Shown here: piece by piece, positions 3,374 to 59,742 of the stretch
Layout: each line of letters begins with the position of its first letter
Numbering within the stretch: the stretch's first letter is position 1
Sequence record: OZ035795.1
Length of the DNA: 64,000 nt
Origin: Krischvirus LF73P4
Strand: one strand, 5' to 3'
Position numbers and translations under genes: made by a program
The notes under the pieces: model-generated
Databases searched by the model: none
Told to the model about the DNA's origin: nothing
Seen by the model: the letters and a program-made list of their open reading frames with translations, nothing else

Positions 3374-3638
3374 AATCGTTAACTACCTTATCAGCTTCTT
3401 TTATTGTTTTTACATCAACTGCGATAACCCGTAAAGGTTCGTCGTGGTTCCACCAATGATCGTGAATATCAGCTTGTGATTTATCACCAAAGGAATCACG
3501 AATATCATTTTTACATTTATAGCTAATGTGACCGTCATAGTCAACATAAAGGTAATTATCGAAAATCGGCGTTTTTAAGATCATGCCGAAAAATCTTTCT
3601 TTGTGTGTCTTATCCAGTGTTGCAGTAATTCGCATCAT
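3360..3638 (-). CDS. HxHW-motif family protein, paralog 4 (92 aa)
   Basis: HDHWWNH ... VIAVDV motif; SD2 context. Confidence 0.6.
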   Translation of the reverse strand: MMRITATLDKTHKERFFGMILKTPIFDNYLYVDYDGHISYKCKNDIRDSFGDKSQADIHDHWWNHDEPLRVIAVDVKTIKEADKVVNDYEQI

Positions 3639-10252: not shown

Positions 10253-10320
10253 AAGTCATTCCCCCAGATTGAAAATATTCAGTTATATTTATAATCTGGG
10301 GCTTTATTTATGATTAACTC

Positions 10321-13991: not shown

Positions 13992-14182
13992 GGTACTAAC
14001 TCCCAACGATCACCGCGAAGATGAGAACATCTACCATCAAGAAGTATTGTAATACGATAACCTATATCATCTTTGATGTAACCGATTGTCGGTGGATTTT
14101 CGTCGTCTCGTGCCGGGGTAAAATCATACATCTTTCCGGGCGTAATATCTTGTCCTTTATTGCTATTGGTATAAACTTGCAT
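13988..14182 (-). CDS. hypothetical protein, CSHL-motif family paralog
   Basis: motif GRCSHLRGDRW; SD AGGAGATTAAGAAA-ATG. Confidence 0.5.
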   Translation of the reverse strand: MQVYTNSNKGQDITPGKMYDFTPARDDENPPTIGYIKDDIGYRITILLDGRCSHLRGDRWELVP

Positions 14183-14203
14183 TTTCTTAATCTCCTATAT
14201 TAA

Positions 14204-14902
14204 CTAACCACGGGTATAGTGTTCCAGAACAACTGTCAGATGAATATATTCTAATAGATCTTTCCAAAAGTCAACATCTGGTTCTTCCGGCATACCGTTT
14301 TTCTTTGCCTCTTCACGCGAGAGTTTAACACGCTCGTAGAGATCTTTCAATTCTTCCCGCACATTATCAAAGGTTCTTTCTCCTAACTTACACGCTAAAA
14401 TAGAAGAACGTCGCGCGAGCGGGAATTGTAGATCACCTGTCTGATAGATTTCAAGTAGCTGATAACCAACACGCAGAGCATGAGAAAGATCTTTCCAGTT
14501 ACTGAAATACTTTTCAGATTTGGCTACCTGCTTTTTGAGATAGCCAGACAAACCCCACATACCAACATGATAGAATTTATCTCGATGTGTTCGGATGTAT
14601 TCCCATTCTCTGGAGGATTCAATCAACATGTTACTAGGAGCGTGCACCATGTCAATAGCGCCGATATCGCCTTTACATGCCAGATTGATAAACCGTTTTA
14701 GACTGAACATATTAACATCAATATCGTCTTTGGTGTTCTTGATACCTTGACCGCTAGTGCTTTGGTCATAGTGTTCTTTCATAGATCCTAAGATAATTTC
14801 TTTCGCAGTCGGAACAAAGATACCACGATAATCTTTATCTGAATTTTCAGTATCAAGGCCGTACAAGTGAGATCCGAAGACCATTTTAACCATTGTATGC
14901 AT
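14204..14902 (-). CDS. predicted nucleotidyltransferase (Pol-beta superfamily fold)
   Basis: N-terminal GSHLYGLDTENSDKD matches GS-x3-G-x5-SD-x-D minimal nucleotidyltransferase signature. Confidence 0.6.
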   Translation of the reverse strand: MHTMVKMVFGSHLYGLDTENSDKDYRGIFVPTAKEIILGSMKEHYDQSTSGQGIKNTKDDIDVNMFSLKRFINLACKGDIGAIDMVHAPSNMLIESSREWEYIRTHRDKFYHVGMWGLSGYLKKQVAKSEKYFSNWKDLSHALRVGYQLLEIYQTGDLQFPLARRSSILACKLGERTFDNVREELKDLYERVKLSREEAKKNGMPEEPDVDFWKDLLEYIHLTVVLEHYTRG

Positions 14903-14920
14903 AATTAAACCCTCAGTTGA

Positions 14921-15514
14921 TTAAACGTATTCAGCAACAACATTATGTTTAAAATTACCGCTCCTTTTTGGATTTGGATTTTTCAATCGACTATGTATTA
15001 AATTTTTGTTGTATCCGGTTGCTTTAGACGCTTCGCCAATACTTTGATAAACAACACCATTAACACGAATCGGACGAGACTTATTAAACAGTTTATTCAA
15101 TCCGGCATCATATGCATGGTTTTGGTTTTCTTGCCTCGTTGCGATCTCAAGATTCCAAACACAATTACAAGATTTTACCCCACTTTTATGATTAATTTCA
15201 AGACCTTCACAATCACCTATAAAGTGTTCAGCAACTAGTCTATGAATATAGCTATATTTCTTACTTTCCCCATCATGCAAGCATACATTATAATAACCAT
15301 CACCAGCGCGTTTAGGTCGGAGTAGTTTACCTTTAACACGTTTTATAGTAGGGAACTCACCAAATTGATTTCTCTGGATAAACGGAATCTCGCGGTCTAA
15401 TGAACGGATTCGACCATAGTTAGACACTTGATAAAAACTTTCATATCCTTTAATTGGCTTCCATATCTCAGGGATTTCTACACCATCAATAACAACAAGT
15501 TTAAATTCTTCCAT
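14921..15514 (-). CDS. HNH homing endonuclease
   Basis: NUMOD4-like YQVSNYGRIRS, HNH core HRLVAEHF ... EINHK ... N..NLE; sits directly after grcA terminator without own promoter. Confidence 0.8.
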   Translation of the reverse strand: MEEFKLVVIDGVEIPEIWKPIKGYESFYQVSNYGRIRSLDREIPFIQRNQFGEFPTIKRVKGKLLRPKRAGDGYYNVCLHDGESKKYSYIHRLVAEHFIGDCEGLEINHKSGVKSCNCVWNLEIATRQENQNHAYDAGLNKLFNKSRPIRVNGVVYQSIGEASKATGYNKNLIHSRLKNPNPKRSGNFKHNVVAEYV

Positions 15515-15525
15515 ATTTCACCTCA

Positions 15526-15557
15526 TAAAAATAAAGCCAACCCTTTCGGATTGGCTT
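15526..15557 (-). terminator. rho-independent terminator (minus strand)
   Basis: AAGCCAACCC-TTTC-GGATTGGCTT hairpin followed by T-run on minus strand. Confidence 0.65.
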
Positions 15558-15562
15558 GTCGA

Positions 15563-15976
15563 TTACATAGATTCCGTAAAGGTACGGGTGATAATATCAA
15601 GTTGTTGTTCGCGTGTCAAGGCGTTGAAGCGGGTAGCATAACCACTGATTCGAATTGTAAGCTGCGGGTACTTCTCAGGATGTTCAACCGCATCAAGAAG
15701 AGTCTCCCGACGCAGTACATTCGCGTTGAGATGATGACCCGCGTTACTATTTACCCCGTTATCAATTGCTAAAGGACGGAAGCTAGTTGTGTGCAGTGCC
15801 AGCGAATCGACGTCTTCTGCGGTGATCACATGGTCTTCTGCGAAAGTTTTACTAACAATTACTTTAGCGCCGATCAGTGCTTTCGGTTCGGATACCAGAA
15901 TCATAGGCGCGAAGTGTCCACCAATAATAGTACCTTTATGCTCACCTTTCATGATTTGAATTGCTTTAAATTCCAT
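15563..15976 (-). CDS. grcA: autonomous glycyl radical cofactor (GrcA/YfiD-like)
   Basis: C-terminal [10 protein letters not shown] glycyl-radical motif and [27 protein letters not shown] segment match E. coli GrcA. Confidence 0.9.
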
Positions 15977-16111
15977 AATTCACCTCTTATAGATCAGGAC
16001 GTTCGTCATTAATTTTACCAACCAAAACACCATAGAGTTTATCAGGTTGGACTTTACGATTCTTATTGATTGTAGAACGGAATCGACGAGCTACGCTATC
16101 TTTATTTTTCA

Positions 16112-56107: not shown

Positions 56108-57286
56108 ATGGCTAAATTCTTTGAAGGTCATTACTATGCATTCCGTGAAGGCGGTAAAGATGAGTTTCTAGACTTTTCTCGCTATTCAATTATTCTGACC
56201 GATGCTTCGCGCCGTGGTCATATTCGGGTTGCTGAAATCGTAGAAAAGGGCTTTAAAGTATTAGAAAAAGATGACCACGGTCATGTTATTACTATTGAAG
56301 CTGGAGATGTAGTTTATTCCGCTAATGATATTGTTGATTATTGGGCTACTATGATTATGAACAATGAGCGCAAATACTTTAAACGTATCTCAAAAGAGGC
56401 ATACGAAGCGATGAACAAGAAAGAGGATGCAATGCCGACTTACTTTGAAAAAGGTAAATGTTATTCGTTTACCCCAGAAGGTTTGCAAGAATTTAAGCGA
56501 TTCTGGGGAGAGCATGACCCAGAGCACAAAGAAGCTATGAAACTTGTTGATTTTGTCGAATATGGCTTTTTAGTTGAAGAAGAATTGCACGGATCAGCTA
56601 CCATGATCACCGCGAAAGGTGAAACTGTTAAGGCAGATCGTTTTTGTGACCAATGGAATTGCTTGTTTGACGGTAGCGAATTTGAATACTTCGCGGAAAT
56701 CACGCGAGTTGAATATGTCCGTATGCAGGAGCGTGGTCAGAGATTTAAAGTAGGCGAACGCTACAAACCAAATCCACATAATTTGCCTCATTGGTTTAAC
56801 ACTGAAACCGTATCCAGTCATGTTATTGAAATTGTTCAAAAGCTGGAACATGGATTTAAGGTAACTAAAGTAGATTCTTTCGGAAGTGTTGACGCGGTTG
56901 AAATTGATGGTGTAGAATATACACCGAAATCTTTCGGGCTTTGCTGGTATCACTTGATCAGCAATGATGAACGTTATAACTTTGTTGAACTGCCATCTGA
57001 ACCGGAAGAAGCACTAGAAGATCATGATCATCTGTCTGAACTGGTTAAGCTGTTTGGTGATCTGCCGGATGGTGTGGGTGTTGCGGTAATGGGTGAAGGT
57101 ACTGTTATTCGCAACCTGAAAGACCTTAAAAAGTTCTTGATCGACATGCTTCCTAAACTCGATGAGAATCTAGATACAGATATTCAGAATCGCAAAGAAA
57201 TTGTTAAAGAGACTGAAAAAGAGATCGAAGAGATTCGAGCAATTCGCCAGAAGGTGAAAGCAGTAAAGAAAAAAGTTAGTGTTTGA
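56108..57286 (+). CDS. hypothetical protein with internal repeats, GFKVL/ERKYFKRI family (392 aa)
   Basis: repeated GFKVL/GFLVE/GFKVT units and NERKYFKRISK; C-terminus similar to 55485..56051. Confidence 0.5.
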   Translation: MAKFFEGHYYAFREGGKDEFLDFSRYSIILTDASRRGHIRVAEIVEKGFKVLEKDDHGHVITIEAGDVVYSANDIVDYWATMIMNNERKYFKRISKEAYEAMNKKEDAMPTYFEKGKCYSFTPEGLQEFKRFWGEHDPEHKEAMKLVDFVEYGFLVEEELHGSATMITAKGETVKADRFCDQWNCLFDGSEFEYFAEITRVEYVRMQERGQRFKVGERYKPNPHNLPHWFNTETVSSHVIEIVQKLEHGFKVTKVDSFGSVDAVEIDGVEYTPKSFGLCWYHLISNDERYNFVELPSEPEEALEDHDHLSELVKLFGDLPDGVGVAVMGEGTVIRNLKDLKKFLIDMLPKLDENLDTDIQNRKEIVKETEKEIEEIRAIRQKVKAVKKKVSV

Positions 57287-57879: not shown

Positions 57880-59742
57880 ATGGAAAAACTAATCAAAGAC
57901 ATTACAGAGATCGCAACGGGTAAAGAAAACGAAGTAAGCAAAGAGAACGCGAACAAAGACGCGCGAACATTCCCGACACGTCGAGATCTGATTGCTGGTG
58001 CTGTGTCTAAACAGATTGCTAAAACCGTGTTACCTGAGCACATCTATAAAGCGCATGTAGACGGTGACATTCATTATCATGATATGGATTATGCACCCGC
58101 TATGCCGTTTACTAACTGCTGTCTTGTTAATCTCAAAGACATGTTAGAGAATGGTTTTAAATTGGGTAGCGCACAAATCGAAAGTCCGAAATCAATCGGC
58201 GTTGCTTGTGCTGTAACCGCTCAAATTATCGCACAGGTGGCAAGTCATCAATATGGCGGGACCACAATTGCAAACATCGATCAGGTTTTAGCGCCATACG
58301 TTGAGAAAACATATCATAAACACCTTGCTGATGCCGAAACCTACGGAATCAAAGCGGATACTCTCTATGCACAAGAGAAGACAGAAAAAGAAACGCTAGA
58401 CGGGTATCAAGCGTTGGAATATGAAATCAACACTTTGTTCTCCACCAACGGTCAAACACCTTTTGTGACTTTAACATTTGGTATGGGTACTAGCTGGGAA
58501 GAAAAACTGATTCAGAAAGCGATCCTGAACGTTCGAACTAAAGGTTTAGGTAAAGATGGTATCACTCCGGTGTTTCCTAAGCTGGTGATGTTCTTAGAAG
58601 AAGGATTAAACCTTAAACCGGAAGATCCGAACTACGACATTAAGCAACTTGCATTGGAATGTTCTAGTAAGCGTCTTTACCCTGATTATATCTCTGCGAA
58701 GAATAACCGTAGTATCACCGGATCTAGTGTTCCGGTTAGCCCGATGGGTTGTCGTAGCTTCCTGGGTGTGTGGCATAATGAGAAAGGCGAAGAAGTATTA
58801 GACGGACGTAATAACTTAGGTGTTGTGACTCTGAATCTTCCGCGTATTGCCCTTATTGCCGCTCGTCGTGCTGGTAAAGCGTCTGTAATGCGCAGAATTG
58901 AGCTATTCGAACAAGAGCTAGCTAATCGTATGCCTATTTGCTTTGATGCGCTCATGAGTCGCGTAGACGCTTTAAAAGGGGCTAAAGCCAATGTTGCTCC
59001 GGTGCTGTATACAGAAGGTGCATTTTTCCGTATTCATCAAAACGATGAAATTTTGGAAGTGCTGAAAGATGGTCGCGCTAGTATCTCTCTTGGATATATT
59101 GGTTTACATGAGGTATTGAGCGTCCTGTTTGGTGTTCATCCGTTTGATTCGGAAGATGCGCAGCGATACGGTAAACATATTCTTAAGATCTTGCGTCATT
59201 ATACTGAAAAATGGAAGGACGAAACCGGACTTGGGTTTAGTCTTTACGGTACTCCAGCCGAGAGCCTTTGCTATCGATTTAATCGACTGGACCGAGAGCA
59301 ATTTGGTATTGTTAAGGGTGCTACCGATAAAGACTGGTACACCAACTCATTCCACCTTGACGTAGACCGGAAAGTCACACCGTTTGAGAAAATCGACTTT
59401 GAGAAAGATTATCACTGGCTGGCGTCCGGTGGCATGATCTCTTATGTTGAGTTCCCAGACATGAAAAACAACCTGAAAGGTCTTGAAACTGTAGTAGACT
59501 ATGCAATGGATAAATTGCACTACTTCGGTGTTAATACTCCTTCTGATGTATGTCATGTATGCGGATCTAATAAGGAAATGAGAGCGACCGAGTCTGGTTT
59601 TGTTTGCCCTGATTGCGGCAATGACAATCTGGAAAAGATGAATGTTATCCGTCGCGTTAGTGGATATCTTGGATCTGTTGATCTGCGTCCATTTAACCAC
59701 GGGAAACACTCCGAGATGGTAAACCGCGTTAAGCACATGTAA
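57880..59742 (+). CDS. nrdD: anaerobic ribonucleoside-triphosphate reductase (class III)
   Basis: C-terminal CPDCG zinc ribbon and RRVSGYLG glycyl-radical motif; 620 aa. Confidence 0.95.
   Translation: MEKLIKDITEIATGKENEVSKENANKDARTFPTRRDLIAGAVSKQIAKTVLPEHIYKAHVDGDIHYHDMDYAPAMPFTNCCLVNLKDMLENGFKLGSAQIESPKSIGVACAVTAQIIAQVASHQYGGTTIANIDQVLAPYVEKTYHKHLADAETYGIKADTLYAQEKTEKETLDGYQALEYEINTLFSTNGQTPFVTLTFGMGTSWEEKLIQKAILNVRTKGLGKDGITPVFPKLVMFLEEGLNLKPEDPNYDIKQLALECSSKRLYPDYISAKNNRSITGSSVPVSPMGCRSFLGVWHNEKGEEVLDGRNNLGVVTLNLPRIALIAARRAGKASVMRRIELFEQELANRMPICFDALMSRVDALKGAKANVAPVLYTEGAFFRIHQNDEILEVLKDGRASISLGYIGLHEVLSVLFGVHPFDSEDAQRYGKHILKILRHYTEKWKDETGLGFSLYGTPAESLCYRFNRLDREQFGIVKGATDKDWYTNSFHLDVDRKVTPFEKIDFEKDYHWLASGGMISYVEFPDMKNNLKGLETVVDYAMDKLHYFGVNTPSDVCHVCGSNKEMRATESGFVCPDCGNDNLEKMNVIRRVSGYLGSVDLRPFNHGKHSEMVNRVKHM

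Follow-up and report, generated by a model that had tools for sequence, protein, structure and literature searches.

Free-standing homing endonucleases are well documented in T-even phages, where Seg and Mob enzymes such as SegF, SegG and MobE occupy intergenic slots next to conserved genes, in the same orientation as their neighbours, and vary in presence or absence among relatives. Those of T4 cut hundreds of base pairs (bp) from their insertion sites with co-conversion of the flanks, and the use of a slot by rival endonucleases is known in T4-like phages, e.g. SegH/Hef replacing mobC/mobE (PMC2988022). I-HmuI of Bacillus phage SPO1 is an intron-encoded HNH nicking endonuclease, and the glycyl radical cofactors GrcA/YfiD/Y06I are small stand-alone proteins (~14 kDa class) whose C-terminal ~60 residues match the C-terminus of pyruvate formate-lyase (PFL), radical glycine included. 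Here we analyse a locus in which a grcA-like gene is followed by an HNH endonuclease gene, located in a 64,000-nucleotide (nt) stretch of DNA from Krischvirus LF73P4 (OZ035795.1; hereafter the window), an RB49-like, T4-like coliphage.

Two minus-strand open reading frames (ORFs) match positions 14921-15976 of the window exactly, as given in a first-pass annotation of this DNA: a homolog of T4 vs.6/Y06I (grcA; 137 amino acids (aa); 15563..15976) and, downstream in the sense of transcription, the gene for a 197-aa HNH protein (14921..15514). The locus is a free-standing HNH homing endonuclease of a well-known kind next to a conserved phage gene. It shares with its T-even counterparts the intergenic slot, the common orientation, the presence/absence polymorphism, a linked flank whose divergence suggests co-conversion, a putative promoter inside the 3' part of the preceding gene and the use of the slot by another endonuclease family. 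Very probably, the phage GrcA gene and the I-HmuI-like endonuclease in the slot between grcA and nrdC.11 are connected by intronless homing of a mobile unit that includes the tail of grcA. Unlike the T-even enzymes, the window protein is a predicted homing endonuclease.

The HNH protein has the architecture of I-HmuI, with an N-terminal NUMOD4 module (WK.IKGYE..YQVSN.G; PF07463, aa 16-80, 15275..15469; 1.7e-18, 67 bits against a cut-off of 23.4) and an HNH_3 nuclease core (PF13392, aa 89-131, 15122..15250; 3.2e-10, 39.9 bits against a cut-off of 24.8) that aligns to the HNH region of I-HmuI. I-HmuI (1u3e) is also its sole sequence match in PDB (2.3e-12), with INHKSG...NLE...QEN of the query aligned to VDHKDG...NLR...KIN of 1u3e, residues that we take to include the catalytic His and the metal-binding Asn of the beta-beta-alpha-metal motif. 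The C-terminal DNA-binding part differs from that of I-HmuI in being weakly matched; a putative helix-turn-helix module (aa 145-178, 14981..15082) is suggested by an I-TevI_DNA-bd match of 16.6 bits, below the cut-off of 27. Furthermore, the window gene is free-standing and not intron-encoded: an intron or known RNA was rejected, as no Rfam family matched at E <= 1 in 14000-17200. The domains, the separate ORF with its own ribosome-binding site and the presence/absence polymorphism all agree with the first-pass assignment as a free-standing HNH homing endonuclease next to a conserved gene. The ORF is intact in 12/12 copies, and ratios of nonsynonymous to synonymous substitution rates (dN/dS) of 0.07-0.21 at dS values up to 0.55 indicate that it is under purifying selection. 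Outside the Krischvirus carriers, the nearest proteins are less than 60% and typically 30-45% identical, and mostly belong to phages of Gram-positive hosts. Kinship to T4 MobD, the product of an HNH gene beside nrdC.11 in T4, was considered and rejected (BLASTP E = 0.04, no meaningful alignment); the two enzymes are unrelated in sequence.

By sequence, the region matches 58 GenBank phage records at 94-98.5% identity, every one of them Krischvirus (RB49-like), and the presence of the HNH gene was counted among these relatives. The window-type gene was identified by blastn in exactly 8 records (pEJ01, MIZ4, MIZ5, FL20, AV108, JK32, FL04 and G37-3), in all of which it occupies the same grcA/nrdC.11 slot with 94.6-99.8% identity. 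Nearly all other relatives match the region at ~81% coverage because the insert of ~600 nt is missing, and RB49, KMB43, ECD7 and KFS-EC have a spacer of 83-86 nt in its place (86 nt in RB49 and in most of the records). The comparison of related genomes proposed in the first-pass annotation thus finds the HNH ORF in 8 of 58 records and absent from the same position in most. Neither refuting outcome named there, loss of the glycine motif or occurrence of the HNH ORF at this position in all relatives, was observed. A search of IMG/VR gave 9 loci only, none with the window-type endonuclease.

The same slot holds a different HNH gene in JSE, 011D4, Whisky and phiS, encoding a protein of 175-176 aa (EpJSE_00101 in JSE) with only 28% protein identity to that of the window. 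The JSE-type gene shares with the window gene the hairpin and ribosome-binding-site context and the domain family (weak NUMOD4 plus HNH_3 in the JSE protein), and is likewise linked to a recoded RVSGYAVRF region of grcA. Its linked tail differs from that of the window in keeping the RVSGYAV residues with mostly synonymous changes. Three separate endonucleases in the slot were considered and rejected, as the phiS type is a variant of the JSE type with 78% DNA identity, leaving two families; by these comparisons the grcA/nrdC.11 slot is thus contested by two endonuclease families.

The window-type endonuclease is strictly associated with one version of the grcA 3' end. The N-terminal half of grcA (about codons 1-67, 15777..15976) is near-invariant, with 98-100% identity of the first ~67 codons in all Krischvirus genomes; the C-terminal half, encoding the PFL-like glycyl-radical domain (15563..15776), is mosaic, and from codon ~68 on its alleles form deeply divergent classes with identities of only 52-76% between them. 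Between classes, the final 58 codons are saturated with synonymous changes (dS at least 1.6), as against dS values of 0.02-0.2 for codons 1-65. Over the last 138 nt of the window grcA, no records but the 8 with the HNH gene show identities of 91% or more, and the 651 other matching records range from 60 to 80%; the recoded tail allele is found in 8/8 of the former and 0/651 of the latter. Three metagenome contigs with the window-type endonuclease (L024, L030 and L025) also carry this tail, differing at no more than 3 of 87 nt. L024 is RB49-like through the Arg codon of the glycyl-radical motif and window-like from the Ile codon on, which sets the obligatorily linked stretch as the last 87 nt of grcA including the stop codon (15563..15649; diagnostic positions 333 and 345-347). 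Endonuclease-diagnostic positions in a column-by-column association scan were confined to grcA (column 258 and the codons for Ile and Thr in R-I-SGYA-T) and the 3' junction of the endonuclease (two positions), with none in the 600 nt upstream or in 900 nt of the flanking gene nrdC.11 (14204..14902, minus strand; nucleotidyltransferase, Pfam RlaP).

The extent of the transferred DNA is visible in L025, a contig from a divergent phage with a backbone identity of 45-80%. Identity to the window rises to 95-100% between ~15675 and 15450, is 85-97% from there to ~15040 and then falls; the island, mostly 85-100% identical, thus takes in ~470 nt of the endonuclease ORF, and a brief rise to 86-90% near the HNH stop codon (~14940-14900) lies beyond it. 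Since the tail is strictly linked and the island of high identity sits in a divergent backbone, the mobile unit as delimited by these alignments is larger than the ORF and comprises the grcA tail from the motif codons (~15650-15675), the hairpin, the ribosome-binding site and most of the endonuclease ORF. Synonymous changes affect 2/21 sites in the tail versus 48/125 in the endonuclease ORF (Fisher p = 0.012), which fits constraint at the DNA level. Both the linkage of the tail and the second endonuclease family, the main feature of the locus, had been missed in the first-pass annotation. An endonuclease-driven origin of every tail substitution was rejected, as RISGYAV, RISGYAC and RVSGYAT tails and the sequence REQQLDIIT also occur without this endonuclease, and import of the tail from a related lineage appears more likely than evolution in place. 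Recent recombination with the host was likewise rejected, as the identity of RB49-type and window-type tails to E. coli pflB/grcA does not exceed 72-75% in any of 5,426 genomes; the grcA tails are no closer to host pflB/grcA than to each other. At the far end of the unit, the last ~40 residues of the endonuclease differ between L025 (~3440-3561) and the window (14921-15040), reading NPDAIRKSEKFIAGIIAEYV versus NPNPKRSGNFKHNVVAEYV, with 85-100% DNA identity in the rest, which may reflect a swap or rapid change at the C-terminal end of the DNA-binding region.

The recoded tail also contains a sigma-70-type promoter-like site on the minus strand (15619..15591), consisting of TTGACA, a 17-nt spacer and TATTAT with a TG extended -10 element (11/12 match; predicted start ~15584). 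The grcA stop follows 28 nt and the HNH ATG 76 nt downstream of the site, which is composed of Leu-Thr codons (TTG ACA) and Leu-Asp-Ile-Ile codons (CTT GAT ATT ATC) of grcA. The site is lacking in RB49-type (class A) and JSE-type (class C) tails, including those linked to the JSE-type endonuclease in JSE, 011D4 and Whisky. Within the 64-kb window, 41 sigma-70 matches of at least 11/12 were found versus 2.5 in shuffled sequences, all of which point in the direction of the adjacent genes and most of which precede an ORF start by 24-100 nt; as a class, these matches are almost certainly early promoters of the phage. The grcA-HNH spacer of 48 nt holds a 10-bp GC-rich hairpin with a GAAA loop (15557..15534), a T-run and the GAGGTG ribosome-binding site of the HNH gene (15519..15524) before its ATG. 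The hairpin and T-run resemble an intrinsic terminator (AAGCCAATCC-GAAA-GGGTTGGCTT; 15524..15557) that is common to all allele classes and kept in empty and occupied slots alike. Its action as a translational repressor was considered and rejected, as it does not pair with the ribosome-binding site. This spacer contains no promoter and has no room for one, in agreement with the first-pass description of the endonuclease gene as promoter-less, but the description is probably wrong given the match 76 nt upstream of the ATG. A T4-type late promoter (TATAAATA) was not found within 4 kb on the minus strand, the nearest being at 10293 and 20866. The endonuclease is most likely expressed from an early sigma-70-type promoter made by recoded codons, which the hairpin would damp to low read-through expression. 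In T4, segA, segG, mobC and mobD likewise have promoters within the 3' part of the preceding gene, but of the middle or late types (PMC2988022), unlike the putative early type proposed here. Along the window, the sigma-70 matches on the minus strand all lie below 23 kb (611-22648) and those on the plus strand all above 26 kb (26255-61533), a split that points to a divergent switch point of early transcription between ~22.6 and 26.2 kb.

The product of the upstream gene is a GrcA homolog with a T4 counterpart, as the first-pass annotation had proposed. It matches Pfam Gly_radical (PF01228; 9.8e-16) over profile positions 66-106 of 106, its residues 37-137 align to E. coli GrcA 29-127 (PDB 6owr, 1.4e-28) and its residues 78-137 to PFL 700-759 (5e-24). 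The gene is annotated as vs.6 in RB49 and T4 vs.6 as autonomous glycyl radical cofactor GrcA in RefSeq, and its position near vs.8 and regB is syntenic with vs.6 as annotated in both phages. The glycine motif, for which an alignment had been suggested, retains the radical glycine: G112 (codon 15641-15643) aligns with PFL G734 in the SGY core of R-I-S-G-Y (CGA ATC AGT GGT TAT, 15638..15652). Rescue of oxygen-cleaved PFL was shown for T4 Y06I and E. coli YfiD (Wagner 2001, as cited in PMC8683613), and no spare-part protein for cleaved PFL other than these two has been validated (PMC8683613). By homology to them, the window GrcA is predicted to be a substrate of the host PFL activase and to replace the oxygen-cleaved C-terminus of host PFL. 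The window protein further differs from GrcA/YfiD/Y06I in its longer, Krischvirus-specific N-terminal half, in carrying NAGHH in place of EGGQH and in its departure from the otherwise invariant RVSGYAVRFNSL. Between 15650 and 15776, the VVEGGQHLN that is conserved in GrcA/PFL gives way to another sequence in the alleles of the window, FL20 and JK32, which also lack one codon; the replacing patch is also present in the endonuclease-less metagenome contigs P0007 and L026 and is therefore not tied to the endonuclease.

The window also encodes the anaerobic reductase NrdD at 57880-59742 on the plus strand (Pfam NRDD 2.6e-175), confirming the earlier assignment, which had led to the proposal that the phage GrcA protects either host fermentation or the phage's own anaerobic nucleotide supply. 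T4 NrdD structures are present in PDB, and no NrdD chain was found among the 30 PDB matches of the grcA product. As the C-terminus is PFL-like and such a match is lacking, any role of the phage GrcA would therefore be in host fermentation and not with the phage's own reductase; the proposed NrdD role is unsupported.

Several observations weigh against the interpretation of the locus as a functional grcA gene joined to an endonuclease in one mobile, self-expressing unit. The heptad RVSGYAV is the activase-recognition peptide, and the window allele reads RISGYAT, with 2 of 7 residues changed; RVSGYAVRF is found in 103/120 homologs and RISGYATRF in 7/120, and the window tail differs at five positions that are otherwise invariant across RB49, JSE, T4 and enterobacterial GrcA. 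Furthermore, the allele scores 114.5 bits against an equivalog cut-off of 170 in NCBIfam TIGR04365. However, T4 vs.6/Y06I (L032 3558-3920), which is experimentally validated, also fails this cut-off with 151.1 bits, so that TIGR04365 is uninformative for phage members. The V->I and V->T changes are each found singly in other alleles, and dN/dS between the window and G37-3 tails is ~0.2, on which basis the window GrcA allele looks functional. With respect to linkage, KFS-EC (L017 1104-1603) combines a JSE-type tail with an empty spacer and L029 (200-698) a RISGYAC...REQQLDIIT tail with an empty spacer, so tail and endonuclease are separable; these two may represent alleles that stayed resistant after the endonuclease was lost, or else the ancestral background. 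In contig L020, a JSE-type endonuclease is joined to the 3' part of a window-type tail including the promoter-like site. As for expression, transcripts from the predicted start (~15584) would have to pass the hairpin terminator to reach the HNH gene, and no early promoters are reported among the endonuclease-specific promoters of T4 free-standing endonucleases (PMC2988022). Finally, the recombination junctions coincide with resumed homology and are uninformative about the cleavage site. A further phage, FL15, has a JSE-like tail and is not among the matches to the JSE endonuclease.

Under the homing model, which follows the established behaviour of free-standing phage endonucleases (PMC2988022), the enzyme would cut or nick an endonuclease-less genome near the slot in mixed infections, and repair would copy the donor, so that everything between the cut and the gene is co-converted and endonuclease and recoded grcA tail are inherited together, while the donor's own allele would escape cutting. 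The cleavage target that we tentatively favour, at a likelihood a little short of even, is the stretch coding for RVSGYAVRF in the widespread RB49-type allele of grcA, at a distance of ~120 bp from where the insert lies. This stretch is the most protein-conserved DNA nearby, it is recoded differently in each endonuclease-bearing lineage, and all divergence lies on the grcA side with none on the nrdC.11 side. Alternatively, the empty 86-nt spacer could itself be recognised, as by intron-encoded enzymes, with the insertion destroying the site and the grcA tail hitch-hiking as donor DNA whose divergence (~25%) keeps recombination junctions from forming within it, hence its co-conversion. The spacer is identical in every empty slot irrespective of the grcA tail, two of the diagnostic positions fall at the 3' junction, and the junctions lie at the first long identical patch, where homology-driven repair would put them wherever the cut lies. 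For the same reason, namely that the junctions mark where homology resumes, the sequence data do not decide between these two targets. However, recognition of the spacer leaves unexplained why RVSGYAVRF, the most protein-conserved stretch, is recoded differently per endonuclease-bearing lineage, why a divergent tract is missing on the nrdC.11 side and why synonymous sites are better conserved in the tail than in the endonuclease ORF, and characterised free-standing phage endonucleases cut at a distance from their own gene (PMC2988022); we regard it as rather unlikely. A target inside nrdC.11 would parallel T4, where mobD (56429-57208) directly precedes nrdC.11 and the MobD target is listed as unknown (PMC2988022), but 900 nt of nrdC.11 contain no endonuclease-linked variant, which would leave carriers without immunity, and MobD is unrelated to the window enzyme (E = 0.04), making this target very improbable.

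The HNH protein could also have been domesticated, being no longer mobile and kept by selection on the phage, e.g. for the exclusion of co-infecting relatives or as a regulator. The purifying selection (dN/dS 0.07-0.21) and the possible new promoter that the cassette supplies ahead of nrdC.11 are compatible with such a role, and marker exclusion by homing endonucleases is known (PMC2988022). However, a gene found in only 8/58 relatives and within a sharp island of high identity shared with a divergent phage points to recent horizontal spread, active homing would also maintain the ORF, and exclusion and homing are not mutually exclusive, so that we consider domestication in place of homing improbable. 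Returning to the mobile unit with RVSGYAVRF DNA as its target, a stronger version is that the cassette carries a rewritten, cleavage-immune copy of the glycyl-radical motif whose recoded codons also form the early promoter of the endonuclease. We consider this version possible but doubtful; if true, a selfish element would impose V->I, V->T and R->L changes on a radical enzyme cofactor, in the region recognised by the activase, which is invariant elsewhere.

The locus probably represents a clean natural case of intronless homing outside the T-even phages, in which one slot is disputed between two unrelated HNH endonucleases, and each of them is linked to a distinct recoding of the stretch that is most conserved in the adjacent gene. 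Because the cassette crossed into a divergent phage, its boundaries are visible, and the locus offers a ready system for studying how a free-standing endonuclease picks its target, immunises its carrier and maybe brings its own promoter. The natural GrcA variant RISGYAT could show how far PFL activase tolerates changes beside the radical glycine. Current concepts are unchanged by these results, as mobile elements of this kind are known and the locus, though well documented, is an ordinary one. For annotation, the C-terminal diversity of grcA in these phages is best read as mobile-element traffic and not as a sign of functional divergence, and phage GrcAs will be missed by NCBIfam TIGR04365, below whose cut-off both the window protein and T4 Y06I fall.

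The nrdC.11 gene begins 18 nt past the HNH stop codon, and the intervening junction (14903..14920) contains the nrdC.11 ribosome-binding site; from TTAATCAACTGAGGG onward the window is the same as the empty slots. The empty slots (RB49, L001 2404-2489, and L004, L005, L017 and L029) share one spacer, in which ATGATGATATGATG resembles the ribosome-binding site and ATGATG start of the JSE-type endonuclease (ATGAGGTGATATGATG) and TTAATCAACTGAGGG equals the 3' end of the window-type insert. The shared spacer would be either a deletion scar or a pre-existing sequence into which both endonucleases inserted. It also encodes a 10-codon mini-ORF (MMQSLNQLRV) that ends in the region of the nrdC.11 ribosome-binding site. 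In T4 (L033 6436-8209), mobD is located directly upstream of nrdC.11, and the neighbourhood of nrdC.11 may be a recurrent landing site. A second endonuclease slot was identified at 16604-16665, between the vs.8 homolog (16112-16603) and the endolysin gene (16666-17055), where JK32, KMB43, FL04, JSE, Whisky and phiS carry an HNH_3+AP2 endonuclease of 184-191 aa that is lacking in the window and RB49. Furthermore, the JSE/phiS-type endonuclease has partial DNA similarity (71-77%) to annotated HNH genes elsewhere in Krischvirus genomes, at 21773-21966 in the FL20 record and near 11.3-11.5 kb or 98.4-98.6 kb in ECD7, KMB43, Cognac, TB34 and SAP, which suggests paralogous endonucleases at further Krischvirus loci.

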